Shown in pieces: positions 20,297 to 41,001 of a DNA stretch of 64,000 bases. The DNA is from an uncultured archaeon (GTDB lineage Archaea; Thermoplasmatota; Thermoplasmata; Thermoplasmatales; Thermoplasmataceae): positions 1,696,001-1,760,000 of the forward strand of contig CP009479.1 in the NCBI GenBank assembly GCA_000965745.1. The letters are read 5' to 3'. Below the pieces are notes generated by a model, which did not search any database, had not been told where the DNA came from, and saw only the letters and a program-made list of their open reading frames with translations. Each line of letters starts with the position of its first letter. The stretch's first letter is position 1. Both the position numbers and the translations under genes were made by a program.

Positions 20297-20480
20297 GCGG
20301 TACGGTCTCGCTCTCTGGTTTCAACCTATATTGGTGGAAATAGATCGGTGTTAGTAAACATCTCAACATTATGTTCATTCCGATATTCGTTAATCATATG
20401 ACGAATTCCTCTCTAAAGCCTTTGCAATGGCGTATATCCCCACACATAGATTTAAGTATGACAATTTTTATGAAGGCGCT

Positions 20481-22274: not shown

Positions 22275-22307
22275 TAATGAACGGATATGATATCGAGCGT
22301 GTAAGAT

Positions 22308-23309: not shown

Positions 23310-23315
23310 GGCAAA

Positions 23316-25180: not shown

Positions 25181-25192
25181 GATTGATGTTTC

Positions 25193-26203
25193 ATGTTTGC
25201 TAAATCAGAAAGGAAAGTTGAAGAGAACGTTTCAAGCAGCTCGGTCTCAGGCACTGATGTCATGAGATTCGAGAATGTGACAAAGATTTACAAAAGCGGC
25301 CCCATCGTGAATTATGCACTTGACGACGTGAGCTTCAGCCTTAGAAAGGGGGAGACCATCTCCATAGTCGGGGAAAGTGGCAGCGGCAAAACAACCTTGG
25401 GAATGGCAGCGATAAATTTATTGAACTATGACAGGGGAACAATCTATTTTGAAAACATGCCGGTAAAAAAACTCAACAGGAAACAGAGAAAGAAATTCAG
25501 GGCTGGTTCACAGATGATTTTCCAGGATCCATATGGATCTCTTAACCCATACAATTCGGTATATGACTCTGTAGTAGCTCCTCTAAACAGTTTCAGGCCA
25601 GATTTGTCTCGTTCACAGAAAAGGGAGGAGGTCCTCAAAATGCTTGACAAAGTAGGGCTAAGGCCTGCGGAGTCATACATTGACGAATTTCCGAAGAAAC
25701 TGTCAGGTGGCCAGAGGCAGAGAGTCTCGATAGCCCGTGCATTGATCATGCGCCCTGAGCTCATCATCGCCGATGAACCAACTTCTATGCTCGACGTGTC
25801 TGTCAGTTCAACCGTTATGACACTGCTGAATCATCTTAAAGAGGAGATGAATTTCTCCATGCTGTACATCTCCCACGAGCTAGCAACAGCACGTTACATT
25901 TCCGAAAGAATGGCGGTTATGAACCTTGGAAGGATAGTAGAAATCGGAGGGTCAGACAGCATCGTGGATCACCCTTTGCACCCGTACACGAAGCTACTGC
26001 TCACCTCGATGCCCGATGTCAATAACAGCAACTCGGAGGAAATGGACGTGACACTGGATTTCGACATCTACAATGGAGGGATAAAGGGCTGCAGTTTCGC
26101 TACCATGTGCCCCTTTGTCAGGGAGAACTGCAAAGAATCAAGGCCCGAATTGAACAAAGTGGAAGAAGACCACTACGTCGCCTGTTTCTACCCGTTGACA
26201 TAA
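25193..26203 (+). CDS. dppF: Peptide ABC transporter ATPase (DppF/OppF)
   Basis: GESGSGKT, FQDPYGSLNP, LSGGQRQR, ADEPTSMLD, HPYT. Confidence 0.92.
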   Translation: MFAKSERKVEENVSSSSVSGTDVMRFENVTKIYKSGPIVNYALDDVSFSLRKGETISIVGESGSGKTTLGMAAINLLNYDRGTIYFENMPVKKLNRKQRKKFRAGSQMIFQDPYGSLNPYNSVYDSVVAPLNSFRPDLSRSQKREEVLKMLDKVGLRPAESYIDEFPKKLSGGQRQRVSIARALIMRPELIIADEPTSMLDVSVSSTVMTLLNHLKEEMNFSMLYISHELATARYISERMAVMNLGRIVEIGGSDSIVDHPLHPYTKLLLTSMPDVNNSNSEEMDVTLDFDIYNGGIKGCSFATMCPFVRENCKESRPELNKVEEDHYVACFYPLT

Positions 26204-26267
26204 CGAAGGCCTTAGTAATGCATTCAAGGTACAATTCCAGCATTTTTCCTGGAGCAGGAGGGTAAGG

Positions 26268-26822
26268 ATGCAGTCAGATACGGCCGTTGTTATATTGGGA
26301 ATGAGGGTTGGATTGGGCGGCCCCGGGGAAGAACTTGCAGGAAGGATCAGGGTTGCCATGTCAGTCGCATCAAGGATCGACCCAGAATACATAGTACTGA
26401 CCGGAGGGGTTACAAGCCATGAGACCTCAAGCTCCGAAGCCGAAGAGATGTTCACACACATCATAGAGAATTACCCTGAGAGTGACAACACATTTATCCT
26501 GGAGGATGAGGCTCTCGATACTCTTGGGAATGGCATTTTCACACGTGAGAAGCTGAAGGAATACCCTGAGATAACTAAATTACACATTGTCACCAGTTGC
26601 TACCATCTTCACAGAAGCCAATTTATCTTTGCCAGGAGTTTTTCGAACGAATACCTGACCATTGTCGAAGAATGCTTCGACTGCGACTCCAATAACGCAA
26701 CAATGGAGCAGCAAAAGCTGGCCGAAGCCCATGAATTTTTCAGGAGGGCGGAGGAGTCAGGGACCTGCTATATGGATGCACTGCTGGAAACTGAGATATA
26801 CCTTGGAAAGAAGGTATATTGA
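26268..26822 (+). CDS. YdcF/DUF218 (SanA/ElyC-like) family protein
   Basis: VILG, VLTGG, SEAEEM, LEDEALDTLGN, VTSCYHLHRS. Confidence 0.8.
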   Translation: MQSDTAVVILGMRVGLGGPGEELAGRIRVAMSVASRIDPEYIVLTGGVTSHETSSSEAEEMFTHIIENYPESDNTFILEDEALDTLGNGIFTREKLKEYPEITKLHIVTSCYHLHRSQFIFARSFSNEYLTIVEECFDCDSNNATMEQQKLAEAHEFFRRAEESGTCYMDALLETEIYLGKKVY

Positions 26823-26839
26823 ATTTCAGGACAGTTCCT

Positions 26840-28075
26840 CTACGGCCTCCTTTTCTTCATGTAATAATAAGAGGAACCTCCTGCCACTGCAGCAACAGGG
26901 ACGGCCATGACTGCGATGGATGTGGGCTGTCCAAGGCCAAGGATGTTTAATCCCTGACTGCCGACATATATTGTCATGTTGTAATATGCAGTTCCATTGC
27001 TTCCCGCTGCCTTGAGCTCAATGTTGTTATTTCCGTCACTGACTGCAACATCAGTGATCTGGGAAGATGAGACTTCTTTGCCATTCAGGTACCAGGTGTA
27101 TGAATAATTCCCGAATCCCACACCATCGGGGTATGAGGATATAAGCTTAATATCTGCAGCCTTTGAAACTGAAACATGAGTCTTATTCAGAACTTCAGAA
27201 CCAGCAAGGCCCGTAATGTGGACAGTTTTCTGTGAAGAGATCGTCGGCATATGAATGTAGATAGCGGAAACGTTCTTTCCGTGCAGTGTGAGCATACCGA
27301 AGAAGCTGATGTTCTGGTCTGTGCCTGGATAATATGTCCAAATAGCAGCAGGATCGGTCTGCACGACCTGTCCGTTGCCAATGTAGAGCATTGCATGGCC
27401 ATTTCCGACGCCTCCATCAGCTATTACATCACCGGGGGAGATTATGTATTGCGGAAGAATGCTGTCATTTGTCACATAGAAAACCGAAGCGTGGGGGGAA
27501 CCCGTGTAATTGCCGGATGTACCGTTAAAGCCGGGAATGGGCTGGTACATCATTATCTTCTCCTGTGTTGCATTATTTGGAAATACCGGGAGGTCGTATC
27601 CTGCAAGATAGTCTGCAAGCCTGTAGACACCAACTATTCCGTAGCTTCCCGGGAAACCGGACTGGTATGTGCTCAGGTTGTCCCCGGGCGGATTGGAAGC
27701 CAGTGCAGTAAGCCCACCTGCAATAAGGGCTTCAGAGACAAAATGCGCACAGTCCTCCGAATTAAAATAATCCATGTTGTTTTGCATTATCGACTGGTTG
27801 ATTCCTGCAGGGTAATTGATGTTGTGAAAATAGCCCTTATGGACCATTTCAGCATAATTTACAGCAGCTGAAGTGTTGTAGTAATATCCCTGATAATAGT
27901 AACTGTTGCTGTTTGACAGTGAATAAGTGGATGCAATCGGTGCAGTTTTATTCCCCTGATAGTGCACAACGGCAAATGAAAAGACCAGCACGAGGCAGAG
28001 CATGGCGGTAATGGAAACTGTTATTGTGACGGGAATCCTGTTTATGGAACCGGTAGAAGCACTCCGGAACTTCAT
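26840..28075 (-). CDS. Exported, membrane-anchored putative amidase (Amidase_6 / NlpC-P60-superfamily domain plus PKD-like domain)
   Basis: N-terminal TM; YNTSAAVNYA...EDCAHFVSEALIAGG (catalytic Cys), PGDVI...GHAMLYIG (His); YSYTWYLNG Ig/PKD-like segment; C-terminal TM plus KKRR; TAAATATA box upstream of ATG 28075. Confidence 0.7.
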   Translation of the reverse strand: MKFRSASTGSINRIPVTITVSITAMLCLVLVFSFAVVHYQGNKTAPIASTYSLSNSNSYYYQGYYYNTSAAVNYAEMVHKGYFHNINYPAGINQSIMQNNMDYFNSEDCAHFVSEALIAGGLTALASNPPGDNLSTYQSGFPGSYGIVGVYRLADYLAGYDLPVFPNNATQEKIMMYQPIPGFNGTSGNYTGSPHASVFYVTNDSILPQYIISPGDVIADGGVGNGHAMLYIGNGQVVQTDPAAIWTYYPGTDQNISFFGMLTLHGKNVSAIYIHMPTISSQKTVHITGLAGSEVLNKTHVSVSKAADIKLISSYPDGVGFGNYSYTWYLNGKEVSSSQITDVAVSDGNNNIELKAAGSNGTAYYNMTIYVGSQGLNILGLGQPTSIAVMAVPVAAVAGGSSYYYMKKRRP

Positions 28076-28270
28076 AGCGCATTGATCACTGTAAATATAT
28101 TTAGAACTTGCCACCGCGATGGGTTCACAATAAAATAATGGCTTGGATGAGACGAGCACAGGAAAGACCGAACTTAATGTGGAATGTTATCTTATGTGGC
28201 GAACACCTGCCTCTTGATACCAGCGGAAGTTCAAGGCAAGTAATATATAATAACTTATTTTAAGCCAACA

Positions 28271-29671
28271 ATGAGGGCGGGGCAGTTCATTCAGTGCGGC
28301 ATCAGGGGTTTTGAAAGAGAAGAAAGTCTAAGGCACATTTCGAGACTTCTGCCTGCATCCATTTCACTATTCAGGGGAGATTACAGGGATGAGGAAGACC
28401 TTCAGGCCCTCATCAGGCAGATAAACAGAATCTACAAAGTGGACAATGCCACTCCCGAGCCGTATATTGCAATCGACCAGGAAGGGGGAAACGTCGTAAG
28501 GCTACCCTGGCTAAACTACAGCCCCGGAAATTACCTCCTGGGAAGATTGGACAACACCAACCTTACAAAATTCGCTGGCATGCTGGCCGGTTATGACCTT
28601 TATTCCAGGGGGATCAGGTGGAATCTTGCCCCTGTTCTCGACGTACTTAACTCATACAACCCAGTGCTTCTGGAAAGAAGCTTCGGGGAGGACATCGACC
28701 TCATTGCAAGGCACGGTGAAGCTTATATCAGGGGACTCCAAAGCTATGGTGTGGGTGGGACGGCAAAACATTTCCCGGGGCATGGTGGAGTTCTCGAGGA
28801 CTCCCATTTAGAACTCCCCAAGGACAGGAGACCTCTCAGCAGCATAATGAATGATGCTTACCCGTTCAGGAAGGCCATAGAGGCAGGAGTGAAATCAGTG
28901 ATGATGTCTCATGTTCTTTATGAATCATTAGACCCTGATTTTCCCGCTTCCCTTTCCCCTAAAATATATGATCTGGCCAGGAATGAGTTCGGCTTTAGAG
29001 GATTGATTGTTACGGATTCGGTTGATATGCTGGCAATAAAGGATAATTTTTCACCCCAGGAGATCGTAAAATATTCGCTTGGAAATGGTGCAGACCTGCT
29101 TGAATGTGCTGACCTCGGCACTTCACTTGAGCTGTCCGGGCATGTTCTCAGTGTAGACAGCGAGAAGCTGAAAAGGAAAGTTGAACATATAGCAGGTTTC
29201 CCCCCAAAACCGACACTTAGTTTCAAGCCGCCGGAGGTAATAATGACCTCACTATCAGTATTGTCGAATGAATTTATCAGGGGCGTGCCACTGGACCCAT
29301 CCGAACCTGTAAAGATCTTCTTCCTTGACACGAATCCTGACAGCAACGTAGCAGAGCCTTTCTCTTCCTTTGAATTCATAATGAAACAGCTTGGGGATTT
29401 GCACATGGATATTGACATTGGAAACTCAAAGGATTTTGAGGGCTTCAACGGAAAGGAGCAGCAGATGATACTCGTGGGCAGGAATGAGCACATGAAGGAT
29501 AGAATCCAGGATATCAGGGAAAAAACTGCAGAAAACAGCGCTGTATACATTTCAACTAGTATCTCCAAGGATACCGGAACTGTACCGGATACAATTGGGT
29601 ACATCGCCGCTTTTTCCACAAAGGGATATAGCATCTTAGGGGCTATTTACAAGGCTATGGGCCTGATGTGA
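28271..29671 (+). CDS. nagZ: GH3 beta-N-acetylglucosaminidase
   Basis: IAIDQEGGNV.RL, APVLDV, RSFG, NagZ signature KHFPGHG.V.EDSH, TDSVDM nucleophile. Confidence 0.92.
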   Translation: MRAGQFIQCGIRGFEREESLRHISRLLPASISLFRGDYRDEEDLQALIRQINRIYKVDNATPEPYIAIDQEGGNVVRLPWLNYSPGNYLLGRLDNTNLTKFAGMLAGYDLYSRGIRWNLAPVLDVLNSYNPVLLERSFGEDIDLIARHGEAYIRGLQSYGVGGTAKHFPGHGGVLEDSHLELPKDRRPLSSIMNDAYPFRKAIEAGVKSVMMSHVLYESLDPDFPASLSPKIYDLARNEFGFRGLIVTDSVDMLAIKDNFSPQEIVKYSLGNGADLLECADLGTSLELSGHVLSVDSEKLKRKVEHIAGFPPKPTLSFKPPEVIMTSLSVLSNEFIRGVPLDPSEPVKIFFLDTNPDSNVAEPFSSFEFIMKQLGDLHMDIDIGNSKDFEGFNGKEQQMILVGRNEHMKDRIQDIREKTAENSAVYISTSISKDTGTVPDTIGYIAAFSTKGYSILGAIYKAMGLM

Positions 29672-29683
29672 AGTCCGGAGCGA

Positions 29684-30775
29684 TCAATAAATTAGATGAT
29701 TTGACCTGATCTCGAGAAATTCATTGAGATCATCGGCCCATCCTTCCACAAGTTCCGCGAACGGGGCATCTCTCCCCCTTGCCTCCAGAAGGCGGTTCGA
29801 GCCGTACAGGAGGCGGATCCAGTCCTCTCTCAGTTCACATTTTTCCGATTCAAGAAGGTCGTACAGTATTCCTGCCCATACTGAAAGGGGATCATAATCC
29901 CGCCTGTCTGTTATGTGGATGTAATATCCCTGGACCCTTCTCCCCTTTAATGGGCCAAGCAGGGGCGTGAATTCGGTCTCTCTCATCATTATTCCCGGGA
30001 ACTCGGTTTTTATCAACGACCACAGTCCGGGAAAACCAACAATGGAGAACGGATGGGGAGTACCACGGCCCAGGCTGGCATTAATACTTTCAAGTAGGCA
30101 CATTCCCGAATAATTGATAACTGAATCCACAGTCGGAAGGTTCCATGAAATCGGAATGTACGAGGGAACAAGTTCATCATAGTACGCCTTTCGTTTATAC
30201 CCGGTCATCCTGATTATTGTGGGTTCGGCCCCAATATTCCGGTCAAACAGGTGAGCCAGCTCACCGATGGTCATGCCGTATCTCACGGGAATTGTGTCGA
30301 TGCCGACGAAAGACCCGTACTTAGGCTCTAACATGGGCCCACTGACGGTGTTGGAATTCAATGGATTCGGCCTGTCAAGAAGCATAAAGCTTGTTGACTT
30401 CTTCTTTGCTGCTTCCATCACTCTGTAAAGCGTGGAGAGGTATGTATAAAAGCGGACTCCTGCGTCCTGCACATCAAAAATCAGTGTATCAATATCGTCG
30501 AGCTCAGAAACGTCCATTTCCTTTGAATCCTCCTTGTAAAGCGATCTCACCGGTATTCCATGGTAATCTTCATCGGGAACGTTCTCGCCATTTGCAAAAG
30601 TGCTGTAGAATCCATGTTCAGGAGAAAATATCTTGACAATATTGGCCCCATTTCTTCGAAGGTAGTCAACGTTCTGGACAAGGCCAAGGGTGACACCTGT
30701 TATGTTTGTGACCATGCCAATCCTGCCACTGTCCCTTGCCGGATGAAAATTCTCCAGGCCGAATCTGAAACTCAT
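29684..30775 (-). CDS. namZ: Exo-beta-N-acetylmuramidase (DUF1343/GH171)
   Basis: TNITG, FSPEHGF, SLY, FDVQDAGVRFYTYLST, LDRPNPL, RYGMTIGELA, SLGRGT. Confidence 0.9.
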   Translation of the reverse strand: MSFRFGLENFHPARDSGRIGMVTNITGVTLGLVQNVDYLRRNGANIVKIFSPEHGFYSTFANGENVPDEDYHGIPVRSLYKEDSKEMDVSELDDIDTLIFDVQDAGVRFYTYLSTLYRVMEAAKKKSTSFMLLDRPNPLNSNTVSGPMLEPKYGSFVGIDTIPVRYGMTIGELAHLFDRNIGAEPTIIRMTGYKRKAYYDELVPSYIPISWNLPTVDSVINYSGMCLLESINASLGRGTPHPFSIVGFPGLWSLIKTEFPGIMMRETEFTPLLGPLKGRRVQGYYIHITDRRDYDPLSVWAGILYDLLESEKCELREDWIRLLYGSNRLLEARGRDAPFAELVEGWADDLNEFLEIRSNHLIY

Positions 30776-31009
30776 TGGGCACTCACAGAGCGTAAATGGA
30801 TATTAAGTCAGTCCTGCGTGGTTCTTATCAGTACGGTCTGAATAACCTCTCTTTTTGCACCAGTAATACTAGACATTGTTTATTTAGGCTGAACAATTGA
30901 TCCAATCAGGGGTGCCTGCTCTACGAACACATCTGTAAAATTCGGTTCGCTTGTTTCAGAGGGAAAAAAACGGGGAAAAGGTTTTCTCAACATTAAAGAC
31001 GGAATTATA

Positions 31010-32083
31010 GTGTCCATCACTTCTTCCCCCAGGGAAGGCTTCGAAATTGAGGACTATTCAGAAAATACCGTAGTCCCGGGGCTCATAGACATTCATACCC
31101 ATGGTTACAGGGGTACCGATTCAATGGGCTCGGATTTGAATTCCATATTGAAGTGGGCATCAGACATAACTTCTCACGGAGTGACTGGTATACTTCCTAC
31201 TTCTGTATCTGCCAGCCACAGGAATGTTGTTCACTTTCTTGATCGGATAAGTGATGTAATCGAGGAATCCAACCATAATCACGGGGCCGAAATACTGGGG
31301 TCCAGGCTTGAAGGCCCATACATAAACAGAATCAAGGCTGGTGCCCACAGGAGGGAATATATACGAACTCCAAGCGAATTCGAGATCAATGATATTTCCA
31401 GCTTTCATTCAGCCAACCTGAAGATAGTTGACCTCGCACCTGAGATTTCAGGCGCAACGGAAGCAATGAAGAAACTGGTCAGGAAGGGAATTATTATTTC
31501 AGCCGGCCACACAAACGCCAATTTCGAACAGGCAAAATCATTCTTTTCAAGCGGAGTAAGGCTGCTGACCCACTTCTACAACGCAATGTCCGGCTTTCAT
31601 CACAGGGACGTTGGGATGGTAGGCGCCGGCCTTCTGCTTCCGAACTTCAGCCTCGAACTGATTTCTGATTTCAAACACACCGCCCCGGAGGCGATAGACA
31701 TCGCCGTAAAAAACAAAACCTGGAGAAACATAATACTCATTACAGATTCTATGTCCGCCACCGACCTGGGTGACGGGAATTACAAACTTGGAGACCTTGA
31801 AGCGGAGGTGGTGGATGCAACCTGCTACATCAAGGGTACGAGGACACTTGCGGGAAGCACACTCACACTGGACAAGGGAATAAAGAACCTGTTTGAGCAT
31901 GGTTACGACCTGAGTGAAGTAATCGGATCAGCCACGAAGAATCCCGCAGAGCTTCTGGGCCTGAATGACAGGGGAGTCCTTGAACCCGGTTATCGGGGTG
32001 ACCTTTGCCTCCTCGATAACGAGATGAATGTAGTTGCAACCTACGTAAGGGGAGAGCAGGTTTTTGATTCGGAGAAACCCTGA
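31010..32083 (+). CDS. nagA: N-acetylglucosamine-6-phosphate deacetylase (true start probably further upstream)
   Basis: PGLIDIHTHG, LEGPYI..KAGAH, APE, AGHT, THFYNAM, ITDSM, LAGS, NPA. Confidence 0.93.
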   Translation: MSITSSPREGFEIEDYSENTVVPGLIDIHTHGYRGTDSMGSDLNSILKWASDITSHGVTGILPTSVSASHRNVVHFLDRISDVIEESNHNHGAEILGSRLEGPYINRIKAGAHRREYIRTPSEFEINDISSFHSANLKIVDLAPEISGATEAMKKLVRKGIIISAGHTNANFEQAKSFFSSGVRLLTHFYNAMSGFHHRDVGMVGAGLLLPNFSLELISDFKHTAPEAIDIAVKNKTWRNIILITDSMSATDLGDGNYKLGDLEAEVVDATCYIKGTRTLAGSTLTLDKGIKNLFEHGYDLSEVIGSATKNPAELLGLNDRGVLEPGYRGDLCLLDNEMNVVATYVRGEQVFDSEKP

Positions 32084-32095
32084 AAATAAATTCTC

Positions 32096-33118
32096 CTACA
32101 TGAGGAGATACGATGATTTTTCAGATTCAGGCAACCCCGTTACTCTTTGATCAAGCTCCCTTGCCAGAAGATCAATCTCCCGCATTCCAAGATTCTTCCC
32201 GTTCTGGCTTAAAACGGTCTGTACAGACCCCAAAACAGCATGGTACCCGAACAGGGGGCTTTCCATTTCCACATTCTCGATCTTGTCGGTGATCTCATTA
32301 ACAAAAGTTTCCCAGTAAATTTTCCCTGCCCTGAAGACCCCACCATATCCGCTAACCGGTAGTGGACCTTCCGCACCTAGTAAATTCTGAAGTGAGATGA
32401 CTGACCTGGCCGCCTCCGATGCAGCCTCTTCAAGTATGTGAGCTGAAAGTTCATCCCCACTGCTGGCAAGGGACGACACCACTCTTGCGAGGGAGGCAAT
32501 CCTTCTGACATTGATCCTTTCACTGTAGACTTCATTGACGAGCCCTCTCGGTTCAGCCACAGAGAATTCATTCATAACCGCTTCCAGTAATTCCTTTGAG
32601 TGTAATGTTCTCCCATCGGCAATCTTAGCGGATTCCTGGATCGCTCTCCTCCCAATGTAGAACGCCCCCCCTTCATCACCGATAAACCACCCCCATCCGC
32701 TGCACCTCTCAAAACGGTCCCCCTTCCTGCCGTAAGCTATCATCCCGGTCCCCGGTGCAGCAATTATTCCATCCCGGTCCGGGAATCGGCACCTGAATCC
32801 GGCTTCGCCGTCATTAAGCAGCGAATATCTGCCCTGAAGCTTGTAGGAGGATATGAAATCATCAATTATCTCGGTGGATTTTGCGGAATCCTTGACGCCA
32901 GCCATGGCGAAGGTAAAGTAATCAACCTCCGCCCAGCTGACGCCGCTCCTCCGAAGGGCATCATCGATCGCTGACTTGACATTTAACCTGGCCGCCTCTA
33001 TTCCAACATTCCTGAAATTTGAGGGCCCATTGACGCCAATCTGCAGAATCCTGCCGGAATCATCATAGGCAACAGCAATTGTTTTGGTAGCACCTCCGTC
33101 CAGGGAGACAAAAATCAT
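32096..33118 (-). CDS. BadF/BadG/BcrA/BcrD-type N-acetyl-amino-sugar kinase (GlcNAc/MurNAc kinase, MurK-like)
   Basis: DGGATKT, GPSN, ND, GTG, GWGWFIGDEGGAFYIG; amino-sugar gene context. Confidence 0.82.
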   Translation of the reverse strand: MIFVSLDGGATKTIAVAYDDSGRILQIGVNGPSNFRNVGIEAARLNVKSAIDDALRRSGVSWAEVDYFTFAMAGVKDSAKSTEIIDDFISSYKLQGRYSLLNDGEAGFRCRFPDRDGIIAAPGTGMIAYGRKGDRFERCSGWGWFIGDEGGAFYIGRRAIQESAKIADGRTLHSKELLEAVMNEFSVAEPRGLVNEVYSERINVRRIASLARVVSSLASSGDELSAHILEEAASEAARSVISLQNLLGAEGPLPVSGYGGVFRAGKIYWETFVNEITDKIENVEMESPLFGYHAVLGSVQTVLSQNGKNLGMREIDLLARELDQRVTGLPESEKSSYLLM

Positions 33119-33178
33119 TCATCAGTGAGGTGTAGTGCAATTATACATTTTTGGTTGACAAAAAGCTGCCAGGCGGCG

Positions 33179-34267
33179 CTATTCGATATTTCTGAATACT
33201 GCGTTGTGGAACAGCCTCCTGAACCTAAGGATGCCGATGTTGTCCCTTGTTGGGTAAACGCGGTTGCTCAGTACAGTTACGGCAATTTTCCTTTTTATAT
33301 CTATCACCAGGGATGTGCCGGTAAATCCCGTGTGTCCGATAGTGCCAAAGTCCGCATAGTCGCCCATGAATGACGAGAACCCGAAAGAATCACTCGGATT
33401 CCTTGGTCTGGGCAGCTTTATCATCCATCCAAGCCCAAAAGTTCCTCCAAGGTACTCATTGGCCGGCGAGGACATAAGGTTCAGTGTACTGGAAGAGAAA
33501 AGCCTGCATTCAAGAAGGGCATTGGTAAACCTGGACATGTCTTCAAGATTGCTGAAGAGGCCTGCGTGGCCTGCAACTCCGCCAAGATAGAACGCATTTT
33601 CATCGTGCACTTTGCCCCATACGAGGCCACGTTCTTCTGTCATCTCTGTAGGGGCAACCGTATCTTTGGAAAAATCCGGGTTGAAGGACGAACTCTTCAT
33701 TCCAAGAGGATCGAATATCTCTTCACGGGCAAGCACATCGAGACGCTTTCCGGATATGTGCTCAAGGAGGAATGCGAGGGTCATGAAGTTCAAGTCACTG
33801 TACTCCTCTTTTGTATACATGCTGGCAGATGCTGCGAAACCCTTTATTCCAGTGAGATAACCTTCCCTGTTTTGCCCAAAAGAGTACAGCGGGTAATGCC
33901 ATATCAGTCCCGAAGAGTGTGAAAGAAGGGATTTGACAGTCAGCTGTCCAGCTCTGCCAGAATCTGCAAACAGCCCTAGTGATGCAAGGGAGTCATCGAG
34001 CGCAATCTTCCCCCGGTCTAACATTTTCATGACAAGCGTGGTCGTGACTACAGGTTTTGTCAGTGAAGCCATATCAAAAATCGTCTCTTTGTTGAAATGA
34101 AATTCAGGACTGCCAATGTTTCCTTCTGCAAATGCAAATTCGCTTCTTCCCTCAATAGTCACGGAAGCTGCCATTCCCGGTGAAACTGCCGGGATATGTT
34201 CCTTTATCAGGGACCGCAATTCGAGAGTTGCCTCCTTTCTCAATCTTATTCCTGCCAGATCACTCAT
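33179..34267 (-). CDS. amiE: Beta-lactamase-fold serine hydrolase, AmiE/YbbE-like MurNAc-L-Ala amidase
   Basis: FDMASLTK (SxxK), YSDLNF, GKVHDENAFYLGGVAGHAGLFS (YbbE/AmiE subfamily motif), GHTGFTGT; clustered with nagZ/namZ/murQ. Confidence 0.72.
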   Translation of the reverse strand: MSDLAGIRLRKEATLELRSLIKEHIPAVSPGMAASVTIEGRSEFAFAEGNIGSPEFHFNKETIFDMASLTKPVVTTTLVMKMLDRGKIALDDSLASLGLFADSGRAGQLTVKSLLSHSSGLIWHYPLYSFGQNREGYLTGIKGFAASASMYTKEEYSDLNFMTLAFLLEHISGKRLDVLAREEIFDPLGMKSSSFNPDFSKDTVAPTEMTEERGLVWGKVHDENAFYLGGVAGHAGLFSNLEDMSRFTNALLECRLFSSSTLNLMSSPANEYLGGTFGLGWMIKLPRPRNPSDSFGFSSFMGDYADFGTIGHTGFTGTSLVIDIKRKIAVTVLSNRVYPTRDNIGILRFRRLFHNAVFRNIE

Positions 34268-34296
34268 CCTCCTATCTCAATTCGAAACAGACTGCC

Positions 34297-35280
34297 TCAC
34301 TTCACAACTTTAGTCAACTTTTCGGGCTTGTCAGGGTTCAGGCCCATGCTGTTTGCTTTGTAGTACGCGAGTAGTTGTATCGGAATAGAATACCTTATTG
34401 GGGCAAACATACCTGGATCGTATGGAAGCTTTACCGTATCCATTTCTGCTGATCCCATCGTAATGATGCTGCTCGTGTATTTTTTCATCTCTGAAATGAC
34501 CGGTGAATAGCCATCATAGGCATCTCTCAGTATCATCACCGAGGTATCTGCATCAAGTGTCTGTATCGGGCCGTGCAGATATTCACGTATCTGGTACGCT
34601 TCCGTCAGAAGGTTGCCGGTTTCCCTGAATTTAAGTGCTCCTTCGAGTGCAGTGCCAAACATGTACCCATTTCCAAGAAACACTATTCGGCTTTTCAGGG
34701 CCCTGGAAAGGTGCTCATATTCTCCGGTGTGTGAAGTGGCATTATCTGCCCAGGATGCTATTTCTGTAACATAACTCATCGGGTCCATGCCGTGAAGATG
34801 GCCCTGGATCAAGGCTACAGCTGTCAGCTGGGCAACATAACTCTTCGTTGCAGCTATTGCAGTTTCACTGCCTGCAGATGTTAACACGGATATGTCTGCT
34901 TTATGGGCCAGTGAGCTATTTTCCTCATTCGTTATTCCGATCACCCTTGCACCGCAGACAGCAGAAAGGTTGAGTGCATTCAGTGCATCAGCACTTTCTC
35001 CAGATTGGCTCATAACAACTACTGCCACTTTCTTCTCCGGTTTTCCTGGAATGTAATTTTCAAAATCAGGCGCCTTGACCAGTACTGCCGGCACATCCTC
35101 CTTCAGCAGGGATATTTGCAGAGAAAGGCCTGCATGATAGCTCGTGCCGCTGCCTGTTATGATCACATAATCGGAGCCAAGAAGGGCGTCTGCTGCTTCA
35201 CCTGCTGATTTCCGCACGGATTCAACAGTTCTCAGTATGGATTTTCCATCCTGTTTTATTTCATCAAGCATAACAGACAT
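34297..35280 (-). CDS. Double-SIS glucosamine-6-phosphate deaminase (isomerising; GlmD/NagB-II type)
   Basis: GlmS isomerase-like motifs GSGTSYHA, SQSGES, ATKSY, EGALKFRE, EYLHGP, NPDKPEKLTKVV, with no glutaminase domain. Confidence 0.8.
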   Translation of the reverse strand: MSVMLDEIKQDGKSILRTVESVRKSAGEAADALLGSDYVIITGSGTSYHAGLSLQISLLKEDVPAVLVKAPDFENYIPGKPEKKVAVVVMSQSGESADALNALNLSAVCGARVIGITNEENSSLAHKADISVLTSAGSETAIAATKSYVAQLTAVALIQGHLHGMDPMSYVTEIASWADNATSHTGEYEHLSRALKSRIVFLGNGYMFGTALEGALKFRETGNLLTEAYQIREYLHGPIQTLDADTSVMILRDAYDGYSPVISEMKKYTSSIITMGSAEMDTVKLPYDPGMFAPIRYSIPIQLLAYYKANSMGLNPDKPEKLTKVVK

Positions 35281-35342
35281 TGTTAGGCTTAACCCTCAAA
35301 CAGCTTAAAATTTCACATTCGATCGGAAGCAATATTTCCGAT

Positions 35343-36455
35343 TCAGAGGTTCTTTATTTCATTCAACAATTGAAAGTAGTTATCTCCAGGGAGAATTTTT
35401 CCGAGGACAGCAGGCTTTCCGCCACTTGCCTCAGTGTTGCCAATTCTGTTATGCAGGGTCTGGTTTGCGATAACAGCGAATCCGACACCTTCCCTTGCCT
35501 TGTCGTCTATGCCATGATCGCTGAATCTCTCAACCTTGACTGAAAACAGATCTGCGAGGTCTTTCATAAGTACCGGATTAAAGCTGCCTCCACCGCCTAC
35601 GATTATTGTCCCAATCCTGTGTGGGATAAACCTGTCCATTTGGTCCTTGATGGATTCTGCCGTGAATCTGGTCAGGGTCCTGATCACATCTTTCTGCGGC
35701 ACATCTTCTTCTGAAATCCTCTTCTGTACATAATCTTCTGTGAAATATTCCCTGCCAGTACTTTTTGGAGGACTTTTCCTGAAGTAATCATCGTCCAGGA
35801 GTTTCATGAGCAATGCTTCATTTATAGAGCCTCCCCCGGCAAACTCCCCATTCTCATCATAATCGCGGCCGGTAAATTTCTTCATGAAGGTATCGATGAG
35901 CATATTTCCCGGCCCGGTGTCAAATGCAATTAATCTATCGCCAATGTATGTGATGTTGGAAATTCCACCTATGTTCAGAGTAACAGTTCCTTCCTCCCCG
36001 AACAATAGCTTGTCGGAAAGTGGAATGAGTGGCGCTCCATCACCACCCATGCTCAGGTCGGTTGTCCTGAAATCGAAAATAACCGTTTTCCGGGTTCTGG
36101 AGAAAATCTCAGAGGGCTCTCCGATCTGAAGTGTCCCTTTATCACGTTTGCCGAGTGATGGACCATGAAATACGGTATACCCGGAAAATGCCACAACATC
36201 ATAATCCCAGTCGAGTATCCCGAGCGACTCTCCCACAAACCGGCCAAGGTACCAGTGGGCTTCGCTGAATTCCTCACTGGTCAACGGTTTCATGGTTGAA
36301 ACTTTGAGCAGCATTTCCCTGAGTGAATCGCTGAATGGAAATTCAACATGCTGCAGCACCCTGACTCTAGTGGTCTCATCCCACCCGTTGATTTCCAGAA
36401 GCGAAATGCTCAATCCATCAGTGGATGTTCCGGTTACGACAGAGGCAAACTTCAA
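35343..36455 (-). CDS. anmK: Anhydro-N-acetylmuramic acid kinase
   Basis: GTSTDG, TLQIG, DFR..D..MGGDGAPL, LNIGGISNIT, AFDTGPGNMLID, PPKSTGREYF, GGGSFN. Confidence 0.92.
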   Translation of the reverse strand: MKFASVVTGTSTDGLSISLLEINGWDETTRVRVLQHVEFPFSDSLREMLLKVSTMKPLTSEEFSEAHWYLGRFVGESLGILDWDYDVVAFSGYTVFHGPSLGKRDKGTLQIGEPSEIFSRTRKTVIFDFRTTDLSMGGDGAPLIPLSDKLLFGEEGTVTLNIGGISNITYIGDRLIAFDTGPGNMLIDTFMKKFTGRDYDENGEFAGGGSINEALLMKLLDDDYFRKSPPKSTGREYFTEDYVQKRISEEDVPQKDVIRTLTRFTAESIKDQMDRFIPHRIGTIIVGGGGSFNPVLMKDLADLFSVKVERFSDHGIDDKAREGVGFAVIANQTLHNRIGNTEASGGKPAVLGKILPGDNYFQLLNEIKNL

Positions 36456-36544
36456 TGATCACAATATACGGCAGAATGTAAAAATGCTTTGAATAATCAA
36501 TTCAGATAAATTATTAATGCATAGTTAACCTCATAGGTAAGGAA

Positions 36545-37366
36545 ATGGAAGGCACAGAAGACAACAATACATTTTCGAGGAACATAGACCAATGGAATAC
36601 GCCTGAAATTCTCAAGTTCATCCATCTATCAGACATCGATGCCTATGAAGCGGTTTCTGCAGCAATGGAACAGATAACGGAAGCAACGGAGAAGATAGTT
36701 GAAAGGCTTGATGATGGCGGAAGAGTCATCTATGCGGGAGCCGGGACAAGCGGAAGGCTGGCTGCTCAGGACGTCGCTGAACTCTGGCCAACATACGGTA
36801 TAGGTTCGACACTCTTTGACTACATAATAGCCGGGGGCAGGGAGGCAATCAGCCACTCAGTCGAAGGTGCAGAAGACAGCCTGCAGGAATCGGTTGACCT
36901 TTTGAAGCAGAAAGGTTTGGGGAAAAATGATGTTGTCTTCGGAATAACAGCTTCCGGAACTACCCCGTTTGTCTTATCTGCACTTGAATATGCCAGGTCG
37001 GTGGGCGCCCTGTCAGTCGGAATGACGAATAACAGGTGCAGGCCTGTTGAGGAGATCGCAAAGATTGCAATAGTTCTGAACACCGGACCTGAGGTTATAC
37101 AGGGGTCTACAAGGATGAAAGCTGGAACATCACAGAAAATGGTCCTGAGCATGATTTCCACAGCAGTTGCCATCAAGCTTGGCTACACCCACAGGAACAC
37201 CATGTCCAACATGGGCGCATGGTACAACCAGAAGCTCCAGAGGAGGGCAGTGAAGATGGTTGTCCAGGAGTTTGGCGTGAGTGAAGCAGATGCAAGGAAG
37301 CTGCTTGAAGACCACTCCTACAGGATCGCGGAGGTATTTTCGCTCCTAAGCAGAAAAAAGGGCTGA
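36545..37366 (+). CDS. murQ: N-acetylmuramic acid 6-phosphate etherase
   Basis: GAGTSGRL, DVAELWPTY, EGAED, GITASGTTPFV, TGPEVIQGSTRMKAGTSQK. Confidence 0.93.
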   Translation: MEGTEDNNTFSRNIDQWNTPEILKFIHLSDIDAYEAVSAAMEQITEATEKIVERLDDGGRVIYAGAGTSGRLAAQDVAELWPTYGIGSTLFDYIIAGGREAISHSVEGAEDSLQESVDLLKQKGLGKNDVVFGITASGTTPFVLSALEYARSVGALSVGMTNNRCRPVEEIAKIAIVLNTGPEVIQGSTRMKAGTSQKMVLSMISTAVAIKLGYTHRNTMSNMGAWYNQKLQRRAVKMVVQEFGVSEADARKLLEDHSYRIAEVFSLLSRKKG

Positions 37367-37426
37367 AAGGAAGTTATGCGTGATACACACATCGAAAATA
37401 CCGGTGCCCAAACGAATGCAGAATGA

Positions 37427-38533
37427 ATGGCGGCAAAAAACATGATTCTATCGTATTGCTTCAGAGACTCGAACGGAGATATAATTGAGTCCTGCAACCA
37501 GACGTATCCTCTTCTTCCCGCCTCAAACATTAAGGTCGTCTCCGGCTATACGGCTTACAGGATGCTCGGAAGAGACTTTGAGTTCAGGACCGATTTCTCC
37601 CTCCATGATAAAGATATGCTGATACACGGTGATCCAACGCCATTGCTGAGCAGGCAGAAGCTCAGGGAAATACTAGTGGCGTCCGGGTTAGACAGGAAAG
37701 ACCTTGAAAGGGTGCTTTTCAAAGATGATATATTTGACGACAGGGAATTTGCGGATGGCTGGAGTATAGAAGACATAGGCTTCTGCTACCAGGCCCGGGT
37801 TGTCCCTTTCTCAGTCGACGAGGGGTGCTACTGTAAAGAACAGGGTGGGTGTGATGGAAGTGCGCCCCTCCATGATGTCGCCAAACAATCGGTAAATGAC
37901 CAGCTGGCAAATTTTGCCAGGGAGATATCCAGTATTGTTTCAGCGAACAACGAAATAGAATACGGCCGGTTCACCCATAATTCCAGCAATCCTCATTTCG
38001 TTTACAGGGAGAGCCTGCTGGATATTCTAGACCACATTGAAGTTTACAGCTGCAATTTTTCAATAGAGGTGCTTACAAAATATCTGTCCTACAGAAAGAC
38101 TGGCAGGGGTTCATGGGAGGACTCTGCAGAAATAATATCGGATTACATGAAATCGCTGGGGCTGGATGCATCAGGCATAAGAATCGTCGACGGGTCCGGC
38201 CTTTCAAGGTCAAACCTGATGAGTACGGAATTTCTTTCAGATCTGGCACACAAAATCATCGAGAATGGTGACAACGAATTCATGAAACTTCTGCCCTCTC
38301 CGGGAAGGGGAACATTGAGGGGCAGGCTGGACAAGCTTTCAAATTTAGGCCTGCACGCCAAAACAGGCTCTCTCGAATATTGTGGAAGCCTGACAGGCTA
38401 CCTGGAGAAGCCTGGAGTCTTTTTCAGCATAATCATAAACAACTCTCTGGAGAATGGGAAAAAGATCATAAACAAGATAGACAACCTCCTGGTGGATTTC
38501 CTTGGCAGAAACGGGATTCAATTGGAAGGTTAG
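37427..38533 (+). CDS. dacB: Peptidase S13 D-Ala-D-Ala carboxypeptidase/endopeptidase (PBP4-like), no signal peptide
   Basis: PASNIK (SxxK), GDP, SCN (SxN), DGSGLSRSN, GTL..R, AKTGSL (KTG). Confidence 0.88.
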   Translation: MAAKNMILSYCFRDSNGDIIESCNQTYPLLPASNIKVVSGYTAYRMLGRDFEFRTDFSLHDKDMLIHGDPTPLLSRQKLREILVASGLDRKDLERVLFKDDIFDDREFADGWSIEDIGFCYQARVVPFSVDEGCYCKEQGGCDGSAPLHDVAKQSVNDQLANFAREISSIVSANNEIEYGRFTHNSSNPHFVYRESLLDILDHIEVYSCNFSIEVLTKYLSYRKTGRGSWEDSAEIISDYMKSLGLDASGIRIVDGSGLSRSNLMSTEFLSDLAHKIIENGDNEFMKLLPSPGRGTLRGRLDKLSNLGLHAKTGSLEYCGSLTGYLEKPGVFFSIIINNSLENGKKIINKIDNLLVDFLGRNGIQLEG

Positions 38534-39261
38534 GTTATTTCCACGAGCTCTCTCTGCTCAACCTTCTCTATTTTAACGTCATGCGGAAATCTGGAAGCCT
38601 TCAGCAGGCTCGATGAGACCACTCCCACCCAGCCTTCTTTCTCGACCCGGTACATCGTAACATATTCATTGTCAAACCTGCTGTCCCCGTAGTAAAAGAG
38701 CCTCCCCTTCCTGGTGACCTTGTCAACAGCAAGGACAAATATGTTGTTCGTTGTTTTTACAAAATCAAACCTTCCTGAATCCTCTAGGGTTTTTCGTATC
38801 TTTTCTTCAATATCTCCCTCCTGCCTCATCAGGTACTCAAGAAAGAACTCACTGTCCGGCTGATTGTCAAGATTACCTTCATTGAGGGCGCCGGCTATGT
38901 TCTCTTTCCTGTATGAGCCATTATGAACGAGATAGACGTCGTACTCAGTGTTGCTTCGGTGATGGGGGTGCGAGTCAAGCATTCCGACCGGTTCACCTGC
39001 GGCTGCCTTTCGTGCATGGACAACAAGTATCCCACTTTCGGGGAACTCAGGTTTTCTGCTGTTGAAAATAGGCTCCCGGTACCTTCTGAAATCTATTGAG
39101 TTTTGGTCCATAGCCACATATCCCCAGCCATCGTCGTGGGACGGGTCACCTTTTCTGTCTTCAGGGAACAGTGGATCATGCCTGCATACTTCTACAAGCG
39201 ATTCAAAAACATCATTCGCATCAGATTTGAAATCCCCAAACATCGTAAACATTCTACACAA
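38530..39261 (-). CDS. Class II glutamine amidotransferase-like Ntn hydrolase (YafJ/EgtC-like)
   Basis: TTG start at 39261 gives M-C-R-M (N-terminal nucleophile Cys), HDDGWG, HARKA, HPH, HNGS, DSE. Confidence 0.8.
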   Translation of the reverse strand: MCRMFTMFGDFKSDANDVFESLVEVCRHDPLFPEDRKGDPSHDDGWGYVAMDQNSIDFRRYREPIFNSRKPEFPESGILVVHARKAAAGEPVGMLDSHPHHRSNTEYDVYLVHNGSYRKENIAGALNEGNLDNQPDSEFFLEYLMRQEGDIEEKIRKTLEDSGRFDFVKTTNNIFVLAVDKVTRKGRLFYYGDSRFDNEYVTMYRVEKEGWVGVVSSSLLKASRFPHDVKIEKVEQRELVEIT

Positions 39262-39369
39262 TTCAGAGCGCCCGGTCTTGAGAAGCATTCCATTGGATAA
39301 ATATGATCCTGCCCGTGGTTGTTGTCTCATTCTGGAAATGAATATTAATGCAAACACACATGATCAACA

Positions 39370-40191
39370 ATGAGGATACTGATCTCGGTTGATGCAGAGG
39401 GGCTTCAGGGCATAACGTTCGGTACGCAGGTTCTTCCCGGGATGCCCGATTATTATCTGGCAAGAGAGACAATGGCACAGTCGGTAAACAGCGTGGGACG
39501 GGGAATTAGGTCAAGCGGTGTCGCCGAGAAGGTTACTGTTGTAGATTCACACGATGGAAGCAGGAATATACTTGCAGAATCACTCGACCCGGGAATTTCA
39601 TTGATAACTGGGGGACCTAAGCCCTTGAGCATGGTCGAGGGAGCCAGGAAAACTGATAAAATGTTCTTACTGGGTTATCACCCCAGGGCAGGAACTGAAG
39701 CCGGTGTACTTGACCACACCTATTCCACCAATGTTCACAGGCTCAGGATAAACGGGGAAGAAATGGGGGAGATTGGCCTGAGTGCCTCAGTTGCCGGCCA
39801 TTTTGGAGTCCCCGTTACTTTGTTGGCAGGAGACAGGGCTGCGGTTGGGGAAGGTGAGAAGATTATCAATGACGCTGAATTTGTAGTCCTGAAAGATGGC
39901 ATATCCAGGTACTCTGCAGAAACTTCAGTTCCAGTTGATGCCGAATCGATGCTGGAGAAATCTGCGCTTAAAGGTGCCAGGAGAAAGGGAACTCCTTTCG
40001 TCATTGATGGCAGCGTGGAAGTTTCATTAGAATTCCAGAACACGGGGATGGCGGACAACTGCATGATGCTTCCCGGTACGGTCAGAAAGGACGGCTATAC
40101 AGTACAGGCTGAAGCAAAGGATATCGTTGAGGCATACAGGATTTTCAGGGTGCTTGTATCGCTGTCATCATTTGATCATGGTGGTTATTGA
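39370..40191 (+). CDS. dppA: M55-family D-aminopeptidase (Bacillus DppA type)
   Basis: ISVDAEG, DSHDG, KPLSMVEG, GYH, HTYS, GE, GD. Confidence 0.9.
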   Translation: MRILISVDAEGLQGITFGTQVLPGMPDYYLARETMAQSVNSVGRGIRSSGVAEKVTVVDSHDGSRNILAESLDPGISLITGGPKPLSMVEGARKTDKMFLLGYHPRAGTEAGVLDHTYSTNVHRLRINGEEMGEIGLSASVAGHFGVPVTLLAGDRAAVGEGEKIINDAEFVVLKDGISRYSAETSVPVDAESMLEKSALKGARRKGTPFVIDGSVEVSLEFQNTGMADNCMMLPGTVRKDGYTVQAEAKDIVEAYRIFRVLVSLSSFDHGGY

Positions 40192-40203
40192 AGGGAGCCG
40201 ACA

Positions 40204-40908
40204 TCAATATGGCAGGCTGATCCTTGTGGATCTGTCGATTCTGCCTATTTTTTCAAATATTTTCAAAAGAAGCTGTGAATATTCACTACCATCAGACAGA
40301 TCACTGTAGGTAACTCCGCCGTTGTGGAGGTTCGCATGGATTATCGTGTTGTTCCCAAGATAGAGGCCAACGTGTCCTTCAAAGAAGACAAGGTCGCCTG
40401 ATTCAGCGTCTTCAAACGAGTCGACTGTTAATGAATTATCCCTCTGCCAACCCGCATTTCTCGGAATTTCAATCCCATTGAACCTGAAAAGCCTCTGCGT
40501 GAAGCCTGAGCAGTCATAGCCCAGATCGGACGTGCCTCCCCAGAGGTATGGGACTGTCAGGAACTCATGGGCAGACTCTGAAGGTTCAAGCCTTTCTTCA
40601 AGTTTCATCAGCAGGTTTTCGGGGATATCATGTTCGGAAATATCATCATCGTTGACACAGGACCCGAATGAAAAGATCATTCTCGTTGAGCGATAATTTC
40701 TCCTAATCCTGTAATTTTTCTTTCTGCCTTCCGATACCAGGGTTCTGAGGACGTATCCTTTCAGCTTGTCCGCCCCTTCCACGTAAAGGTAATCATCGGA
40801 TTCTGAAATCACCTTGACTTCTTCGCCGAATATTAGCTGAGAGTCCCTTTCACTGTGAAAGTCTGCCCCGACCCTGACATCTGCAACGCTGAAGGAAATG
40901 TATGACAT
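40204..40908 (-). CDS. NlpC/P60 (C40) peptidase, YkfC-like gamma-D-glutamyl-diamino acid endopeptidase
   Basis: SH3-like N-terminus (SQLIFGEEV), PYLWGG, DCSGF, PRNAGWQ, GDLVFF.GHVGLY, IIHA; no signal peptide; TTTTAA about 25 nt before ATG 40908. Confidence 0.85.
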   Translation of the reverse strand: MSYISFSVADVRVGADFHSERDSQLIFGEEVKVISESDDYLYVEGADKLKGYVLRTLVSEGRKKNYRIRRNYRSTRMIFSFGSCVNDDDISEHDIPENLLMKLEERLEPSESAHEFLTVPYLWGGTSDLGYDCSGFTQRLFRFNGIEIPRNAGWQRDNSLTVDSFEDAESGDLVFFEGHVGLYLGNNTIIHANLHNGGVTYSDLSDGSEYSQLLLKIFEKIGRIDRSTRISLPY

Positions 40909-41001
40909 GCCTGCGGTCATTCTCAGGACGCCTTAAAAGCTTTTTACCCGATTCTTCACTCTCCTGATGCAACTTAAATAAGATGGCAAAGATACTGTGG
41001 C

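Follow-up and report, generated by a model that had tools for sequence, protein, structure and literature searches.

A predicted peptidoglycan-scavenging island with two kinase entry routes for muramic sugars in an uncultured Thermoplasmata archaeon

The window analysed here is a stretch of 64,000 nucleotides from an uncultured archaeon of the Thermoplasmataceae (class Thermoplasmata; assembly GCA_000965745.1, contig CP009479.1, positions 1,696,001 to 1,760,000), which carries a group of genes for handling the amino sugars of peptidoglycan, the bacterial cell wall polymer. All coordinates given below are window coordinates, and genes were called from the listing of open reading frames (ORFs) together with family-model scans (Table 1). 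The first-pass annotation of this DNA had pointed to the joint presence of anmK and a gene for a BadF-type amino-sugar kinase and to the lack of any phosphotransferase system (PTS) gene in the window, and had proposed that N-acetylmuramic acid (MurNAc) as well as N-acetylglucosamine (GlcNAc) from walls is used here without a PTS. Both observations were borne out, in that all the genes it named are in place with strong family matches and no PTS gene occurs in the window, and the proposal is supported by the whole genome, in which PTS_EIIC (PF02378), the sole PTS family searched, has no match. A gene it had left unmentioned, encoding a PBP4B-like serine hydrolase, sits between the kinase gene and that of a protein with SIS domains. 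Bacteria are known to recycle or eat peptidoglycan by way of the MurQ pathway. Given the genes present, their catalytic residues, the lack of signal peptides and of a PTS EIIC, and the co-occurrence of the genes among genomes, we consider it fairly likely that they serve as the cytoplasmic amino-sugar arm of an island for scavenging peptidoglycan, in an archaeon that appears not to make this polymer itself.

In the pathway that we propose, wall fragments would be imported, probably through an Opp-type ATP-binding cassette (ABC) transporter, and would then be dismantled in the cytoplasm by NagZ, by an amidase acting on the MurNAc-L-Ala bond (probably the PBP4B-like protein) and by NamZ, which would yield GlcNAc and MurNAc and, in the case of lytic-transglycosylase products, release 1,6-anhydro-MurNAc. 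The BadF-type kinase, a member of what we term clade A, would phosphorylate MurNAc and GlcNAc at O6, and AnmK would open and phosphorylate anhydro-MurNAc. Both routes would thus lead to MurNAc 6-phosphate (MurNAc-6-P), to be converted by MurQ to GlcNAc 6-phosphate (GlcNAc-6-P) and D-lactate, after which NagA would take off the acetate and the SIS protein would deaminate glucosamine 6-phosphate (GlcN-6-P) to fructose 6-phosphate. All substrate specificities in this scheme are predicted, as are the cargo of the transporter and the identity of the amidase, and the existence of two routes appears well supported by comparative genomics.

Table 1. Genes of the amino-sugar arm, the associated importer and the island as a whole.
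Feature	Coordinates	Strand	Evidence and remarks
NagZ-type GH3 beta-N-acetylglucosaminidase	28271..29671	+	PF00933, E = 1.8e-55; predicted GlcNAc removal from non-reducing end
NamZ, predicted exo-beta-N-acetylmuramidase	29684..30775	-	NamZ_N, E = 7e-65; NamZ_C, E = 2.6e-27
NagA, predicted GlcNAc-6-P deacetylase	30893..32083 (listed ORF 31010-32083, GTG start 31010)	+	TIGR00221, 264 bits
Clade-A BadF/ASKHA sugar kinase, predicted MurNAc and GlcNAc 6-kinase, putative core entry route	32096..33118	-	PF01869, E = 1.8e-41
PBP4B-like serine hydrolase, beta-lactamase fold	33179..34267	-	PF00144, E = 5.6e-47; PBP4B model 132 bits, under cut-off
Two-SIS-domain protein corresponding to the GlmS isomerase half, predicted GlcN-6-P deaminase (GlmD/NagB-II type)	34297..35280	-	TIGR01135, positions 253-604 only
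AnmK, predicted 1,6-anhydro-MurNAc kinase, putative accessory entry route	35343..36455	-	PF03702, E = 7.6e-79
MurQ, predicted MurNAc-6-P etherase, convergence point of both routes	36545..37366	+	NF003915, 314 bits; 4lzj/1nri, E = 1e-57
Opp-type ABC importer (SBP_bac_5, two permeases, two ATPases), presumed wall-fragment uptake	20427..26203	+	Pfam matches
Whole island, 20.7 kb	20297..41001	.	Missing between M20 peptidase gene and lysA in same-genus genome

The kinase is the sole BadF-family protein of the genome, a ROK glucokinase-like gene being encoded elsewhere and separate from it. It keeps the phosphate motifs of the ASKHA fold and the catalytic Asp, and the elements DGGATKT, N102-D103, GTG and GYGGV are invariant in its clade and align with those of 8zo3, a MurNAc/GlcNAc kinase that is its best match in the PDB (E = 3e-31; our literature search found no paper on this structure), followed by the broad-specificity hexokinase of Sulfolobus tokodaii (2e2n; E = 2e-29). 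In a search of 5.8 billion proteins, clade A extended from 72% to 39% identity, after which identity fell sharply to about 35%, and in a library clustered at 50% just six representatives scored better than E = 1e-79, the next standing at 6e-48. The clade was supported in both of our trees (100 in one, 99 in the other), with the kinases of Thermoplasma, Oxyplasma, Ferroplasmaceae and Sulfolobaceae as its sister clade; labels are source names and record titles, and the Clostridium MurK and the Sulfolobus hexokinase are not in the tree, there being no near copy of either among the 150 representatives returned. The next-nearest proteins, where named, are likewise archaeal (Thermoplasmatales, Nitrososphaerota, Thermoprotei, Thermofilum and Metallosphaera), and from these relatives and the sister clade we infer that the kinase is of archaeal descent rather than a transferred bacterial MurK. 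Orthology to a characterised bacterial MurK was not found: the clade profile barely detects Tannerella forsythia MurK and K1058 (E from 1e-4 to 6e-3), and the former is too distant from the clade-A kinase for safe alignment. The label ‘MurK-type’ that the kinase had initially been given could therefore not be kept as a statement of family membership, and the protein should best be described as working like MurK.

The MurNAc role that we predict for the kinase is drawn from genomic context, namely its linkage to MurQ, and not from its sequence. We searched a class sample of 301 genomes for MurQ, NamZ, AnmK and the clade-A kinase (E <= 1e-50), which were found in 13, 10, 8 and 10 genomes, respectively. 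Every genome with NamZ, AnmK or the clade-A kinase also has MurQ (10 of 10 in the case of the kinase, which in those genomes is no more than about 10 kb from murQ). Both kinases are present in six genomes (G113, G007, G042, G080, G096 and G000, the last being the genome described here), and five others (G025, G091, G141, G207 and G243) have MurQ, NamZ and a cluster kinase and are without AnmK; in G025 this is a kinase at 34-35% identity that directly adjoins the SIS gene, nagA and murQ. In these five AnmK-less genomes MurQ would have no visible source of MurNAc-6-P other than the cluster kinase, with EIIC having been searched for in G000 alone. AnmK and MurQ occur without the kinase in two fragmented genomes (G032 and G088). 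The locus of G032 (L030; G032:C35 1-20000) holds an Opp importer, two PBP4B-like genes, nagA, P60, murQ and anmK, and no BadF kinase, NagZ or NamZ was seen in this interval of a fragmented assembly; G032 is possibly an AnmK-only variant.

A comparable picture emerged from species-level loci, 39 of clade A and 18 of the sister clade, that were fetched with 10-kb flanks. Wall-sugar genes lie within 10 kb at 26 of the 39 clade-A loci, MurQ at 17 and AnmK at three, and only one of the 17 MurQ loci has AnmK. In contrast, none of the 18 sister-clade loci is near MurQ, NamZ or NagZ, and three of them have just a SIS deaminase gene, a pairing that looks like a GlcNAc module. In two MurQ-less relatives (G134:C1:1115642-1117628 and G046:C1:1559855-1561515) a sister-clade BadF kinase gene was seen directly beside a SIS gene of GlmS-isomerase type, which has the look of a minimal pair for using GlcNAc. 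Within the kinase tree the wall-cluster context recurs in all the main branches of clade A, the Sysuiplasma lineage, which branches first, among them, and metagenomic contigs agree with the linkage. The idea of two entry routes, put forward in the first-pass annotation, thus stands in so far as both kinases are intact and the kinase clade is tied to MurQ also where AnmK is lacking, but the routes are not equal: the kinase appears to be the core, and AnmK, found in 8 of the 13 MurQ genomes of the class sample, appears to be an accessory module that is optional beside it. The three configurations (kinase only, kinase plus AnmK, and AnmK only) suggest entry routes matched to the fragments available from bacterial neighbours, and an ecology in which anhydro products shed by Gram-negative neighbours are taken alongside muramidase products is plausible.

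AnmK, a protein of 370 residues, is matched by PF03702 over its full length (residues 2-356) and in the PDB by the AnmK of Pseudomonas aeruginosa (3qbw; E = 4.6e-47). Its score of 386.8 bits with NF007148 compares with a cut-off of 387, the other AnmK equivalogs being under their cut-offs, and S12, D14, T97, R129, N168, the general base D182, D191 and E326 (P. aeruginosa AnmK numbering) are all kept. Its gene has murQ within 2 kb in 7 of the 8 archaeal genomes with AnmK. The archaeal AnmKs form a group of their own at identities of at least 45%, below which follow bacterial proteins at about 40% (Firmicutes, Thermoflavimicrobium and Scalindua/Brocadiaceae), a pattern that fits a bacterial origin of AnmK.

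The shared downstream steps are likewise encoded by genes with conserved catalytic residues, which supports the earlier suggestion that both routes converge on MurQ, NagA and a deaminase. MurQ is above both curated cut-offs (NF003915, 314 bits versus 168; NF009222, 282 versus 255) and, compared with 4lzj/1nri, keeps the catalytic Glu pair, one in the D-x-x-E-x-x-PT loop (of SE-x-PPT type) and the other in EGAED; we take the two to correspond to E83 and E114 in E. coli numbering. NagA scores 264 bits with TIGR00221 (cut-off 226), and its HxH, Glu, His, His and Asp ligands align with those of Thermotoga maritima NagA (1o12). The SIS protein consists of two SIS domains without a glutaminase domain, and retains the GTSY and SQSGE loops together with equivalents of K485, E488, H504 and K603 of the GlmS isomerase; its role as a deaminase is one we infer from gene context. 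A second, housekeeping SIS-only protein of about 345 residues, matched at GlmS positions 290-596, is encoded elsewhere in the genome (G000:C1:1835958-1836794) and in each of five relatives of the same family.

Of the glycosidases, NagZ carries the motif KHFPGHGGVLEDSH at residue 166 (pattern KHFPGHG-x4-DSH), and both NamZ domains were detected (PF07075, 218.6 bits; PF20732, 96.9 bits), a family whose function and catalytic Glu and Arg are described in PMC8054146. No N-terminal hydrophobic segment or signal peptide was found on NagZ, NamZ, the PBP4B-like protein, S13 or P60, and a hydrophobic N-terminal segment is present on the SBP_bac_5 binding protein of the importer (20427-22274) and on a surface protein. 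Because the hydrolases have no signal peptides, the sugar arm would be cytoplasmic and would have to be fed with imported oligomeric fragments, probably by the Opp-type importer, a transporter type that is also found in the related clusters of other genomes. An AmpG-like permease was also considered, and the nearby protein of the major facilitator superfamily matches anion-symporter subfamilies and not AmpG. Alternation of NagZ and NamZ needs a MurNAc-L-Ala amidase, and in Bacillus subtilis AmiE acts between the two (PMC8054146). Since Amidase_2 and Amidase_3 are both absent from the genome, the candidates here come down to the PBP4B-like protein and the surface hydrolase, of which the former, with its S-x-x-K motif kept and its gene adjoining the kinase gene in most related clusters, is probably the MurNAc-L-Ala amidase. 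AmiE itself is presumably a beta-lactamase-fold protein, which would make the PBP4B-like protein its counterpart. The alternating removal of GlcNAc and MurNAc by NagZ and NamZ that had been cited at the outset as established is thus upheld as to the presence of both genes, but here it would take place in the cytoplasm and would require the amidase as well.

Several observations weigh against this account. The clade profile scores 149.8 bits with 8zo3 and 148.2 bits with 2e2n, such that sequence does not decide MurNAc use, and the pocket by which T. forsythia MurK accommodates the lactyl group does not discriminate, since human NagK and Sulfolobus hexokinase have it open as well (PMC10465942). 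Room for the lactyl ether would call for small residues where ROK kinases have Glu or His; the S/G-G-W-G stretch before GDEG is small in our kinase, as it is in 8zo3, 2e2n and human NagK. Given the tie in the PDB searches and the MurK pocket residues, which are non-discriminating within the BadF family, a derivation of kinase specificity from sequence was abandoned. Furthermore, 13 of the 39 clade-A loci are without wall genes within 10 kb, and one clade-A copy has sugar-nucleotide genes (NTP_transferase, epimerase) and PGK as neighbours. The SIS protein stays far under the equivalog cut-offs (NagB_SO3506, 107 bits versus 430; GlmD, 106 versus 580), and the conserved residues of AnmK, among them the equivalents of R129 and T97, are also kept in levoglucosan kinase, for which reason the AnmK residues were rejected as grounds for excluding levoglucosan. 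Finally, nagA has no canonical start at the orthologous position, as no ATG, GTG or TTG occurs between the preceding stop (30890) and 31010, and the 39 codons upstream (30893-31009) are in frame, their peptide aligning well with the N-terminal ends of orthologous proteins. Translation either begins at a non-canonical codon or has recently lost its start codon, and the latter would remove the first strands of the small domain. As for the clade-A loci outside wall clusters, they comprise two tight subclades and single rows, and some of the genomes concerned also hold an in-cluster copy, which suggests that the extra copies arose by duplication and changed their role. Such copies away from wall clusters were seen at L008 (10001-11071), L042 and L045-L053, one of them in a record labelled Marsarchaeota.

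The equal likeness of the kinase to the Sulfolobus hexokinase and to the MurNAc/GlcNAc kinase would also suit an enzyme restricted to GlcNAc, or a general hexose kinase, that serves only the GlcNAc released by NagZ, with AnmK alone supplying MurNAc-6-P and hence a single route for MurNAc. Its nearest relatives are archaeal NagK/hexokinase-like proteins, and the sister-clade kinases that adjoin a SIS deaminase gene in MurQ-less genomes have the look of a GlcNAc-only module. We regard this as unlikely, since in 5 of the 13 MurQ genomes NamZ and a cluster kinase occur with no AnmK, which would leave MurQ and NamZ without product flow (PTS EIIC is absent from G000, the one genome searched for it), and since AnmK accompanies just one of the 17 species-level loci at which MurQ and the kinase lie no more than 10 kb apart. 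In addition, clade A has 19 conserved positions, among them R36, K76, R111 and R170, at which the sister clade differs, and 8zo3, but not the hexokinase, has the same residues as the kinase at E105 and R170 in the alignment; these differences may point to MurNAc use and are suggestive only. That the kinase takes bulkier substrates, for example MurNAc-peptides or disaccharides, and so works ahead of the amidase or glycosidases, strikes us as quite improbable. Human NagK phosphorylates muramyl dipeptides and has the same open pocket (PMC10465942), the kinase gene adjoins that of the PBP4B-like hydrolase in most clusters, and all the hydrolases would be cytoplasmic. However, NagZ, NamZ and the candidate amidase could together yield free monosaccharides in that same compartment, no MupG-type 6-phospho-muramidase was seen (no search was aimed at one), and direct support for larger substrates is nil.

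Two further alternatives concern the purpose of the arm and the substrate of AnmK. The genome has no match to full-length GlmS that reaches the cut-off, only SIS-only proteins and a separate amidotransferase, which would fit an arm that salvages GlcN-6-P for the archaeon's own glycans rather than serving carbon and nitrogen catabolism. Against this, full-length GlmS is also missing from five same-family relatives that have no island and share the housekeeping SIS-only protein, so that its lack is a family trait; the island has an additional deaminase-type SIS gene of its own, and two genomes of the same genus do without the island altogether. We therefore think salvage highly improbable, and a dependence on scavenged amino sugars as a consequence of the missing GlmS was rejected on the same comparison with the five relatives. 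That the AnmK homolog is instead a kinase of levoglucosan or of another anhydro-sugar unrelated to cell walls seems barely credible. Levoglucosan kinase is also matched in the PDB (E = 1e-41 versus 5e-47 for AnmK) and has the DFR and GQT residues in common with it, but the protein has the length of an AnmK (370 residues) without the insertions of levoglucosan kinase, it scores at the NCBIfam cut-off for the AnmK equivalog, and in archaea it is near murQ in all but one of the genomes with AnmK. Its length, its closer likeness to AnmK and its place near murQ argue for anhydro-MurNAc as the predicted substrate.

Returning to peptidoglycan scavenging through two routes, we see about an even chance that the clade-A kinases represent an independently evolved family of MurNAc kinases, which would have arisen from an archaeal hexokinase/GlcNAc-kinase lineage and would have been joined in the island by acquired bacterial anmK, murQ and namZ, giving a cytoplasmic, PTS-free pathway for fragments of both lysozyme and lytic-transglycosylase type. 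For the kinase step bacteria use a PTS or MurK, and these archaea appear to have re-tooled a sugar kinase of their own; clade A could in that case be viewed as a natural experiment in the evolution of MurNAc specificity, with R36, K76, E105, R111 and R170 as residues of interest. If the proposal is correct, archaea of acid habitats would feed on bacterial walls, a large detrital pool of carbon and nitrogen, by a pathway that several Thermoplasmata lineages have conserved in complete and compact form.

Known systems share parts of this arrangement. The murQ-murR-murP-amiE-nagZ-namZ(ybbC) operon of B. subtilis has the same set of NagZ, NamZ and MurQ, with sequential action of NagZ, AmiE and NamZ (PMC8054146). 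In B. subtilis, however, the three hydrolases are secreted and uptake by the MurP PTS phosphorylates the sugar during transport, whereas the archaeon has no signal peptides, no PTS EIIC, soluble kinases and no MurR regulator among its annotated genes. Recycling in E. coli and Pseudomonas resembles the archaeal scheme in that cytoplasmic NagZ, AnmK, MurQ and NagA act in turn on imported anhydro-muropeptides, but neither an AmpD-type amidase (Amidase_2) nor an AmpG-like permease was recognised in the archaeon, and those bacteria recycle their own wall, whereas the purpose in the archaeon would be feeding. The MurKs of Clostridium acetobutylicum (8zo3, by molecule name) and T. forsythia (PMC10465942) are of the same BadF/ASKHA fold family as the archaeal kinase, provide MurNAc-6-P for MurQ independently of a PTS and are linked to murQ; the archaeal kinase is not their ortholog, and its C-terminus extends about 35-40 residues further. 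The S. tokodaii hexokinase (2e2n) is an archaeal BadF-type protein as close in sequence to clade A as is 8zo3, and Sulfolobaceae kinases fall in the sister clade, which differs from clade A in its lack of wall-gene neighbours (0 of 18) and at the 19 positions mentioned above.

Our literature search found no paper describing MurQ or AnmK in archaea, the nearest parallels being ciliates and ticks. Anaerobic ciliates, which have no peptidoglycan, acquired pbp4b, NamZ, anmK, murQ and lysA, and this has been read as digestion of bacterial walls (PMC13198582). For a tick AnmK, anhydro-MurNAc kinase activity is reported, with the critical residues retained (bioRxiv 10.64898/2026.03.13.711553). The ciliate and tick genes are scattered eukaryotic acquisitions, whereas those of the archaeon lie in one compact island with an added kinase of apparent archaeal descent.

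The genome that carries the island is a single contig of 2.23 Mb, 99.4% complete and with a GC content of 46%, which is matched by that of the region. It contains an archaeal small-subunit rRNA (1524 bits), and the closest homologs of the kinase and of AnmK, where named, are labelled Thermoplasmata or Thermoplasmataceae. No SEDS protein scores above cut-off in the genome and Mur_ligase_M is represented by a single protein, and the gene content thus indicates an archaeon that does not make peptidoglycan. A D-lactate-dehydrogenase-like pair of FAD and Fe-S proteins, located far from the island (G000:C1:180140-182800) and with such a pair inside a related cluster, may serve to dispose of the D-lactate formed by MurQ, and we count it in favour of peptidoglycan use.

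Within the island the anmK, SIS, PBP4B-like and kinase genes follow one another head to tail on the minus strand, 62, 29 and 60 bp apart, and murQ diverges from anmK across a spacer of 89 bp. The four genes are probably one transcription unit divergent from murQ, and given the short gaps both kinases are probably co-transcribed. A search for an operator motif in the intergenic regions of the island gave no 9-mer common to at least three spacers. Besides the importer, a DUF218 protein and a membrane-anchored protein are encoded upstream of the sugar genes, and downstream are peptidases (S13, Ntn-type amidohydrolase, M55 and NlpC/P60) and lysA.

The 20.7-kb block is missing from both genomes of the same genus (G285 and G213). 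On contig C3 of G285 (L115) lysA, kept despite the absence of the island, starts at 6278, about 110 bp from the end of the M20 gene at 6164. The gap is larger in G213 (L116, G213:C1), where it runs from the M20 gene to a formamidase gene and where lysA and a large binding-protein gene are also gone. In distant genomes lysA lies inside the cluster, and since in addition the end points differ between the two congeners, a loss of the island in these is more likely than a recent gain; recent insertion as such was weakened by the same two observations.

Related clusters in other Thermoplasmata (L010 5440-7979; L033 12321-13388 and 15807-17495; L035 12508-13608) hold a D-lactate-dehydrogenase-like FAD and Fe-S pair, an MR_MLE epimerase-like gene, an S15 peptidase gene and a Phospholipase_B-type Ntn hydrolase gene. 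The window further encodes three paralogous proteins of about 930 residues (16260-19076, 42327-45122 and 52387-55182), in which a C-terminal SBP_bac_5 domain follows an N-terminal extension of about 370 residues. There is one weak PKD match among the three, two of them flank the island, and G285 has two copies in tandem.

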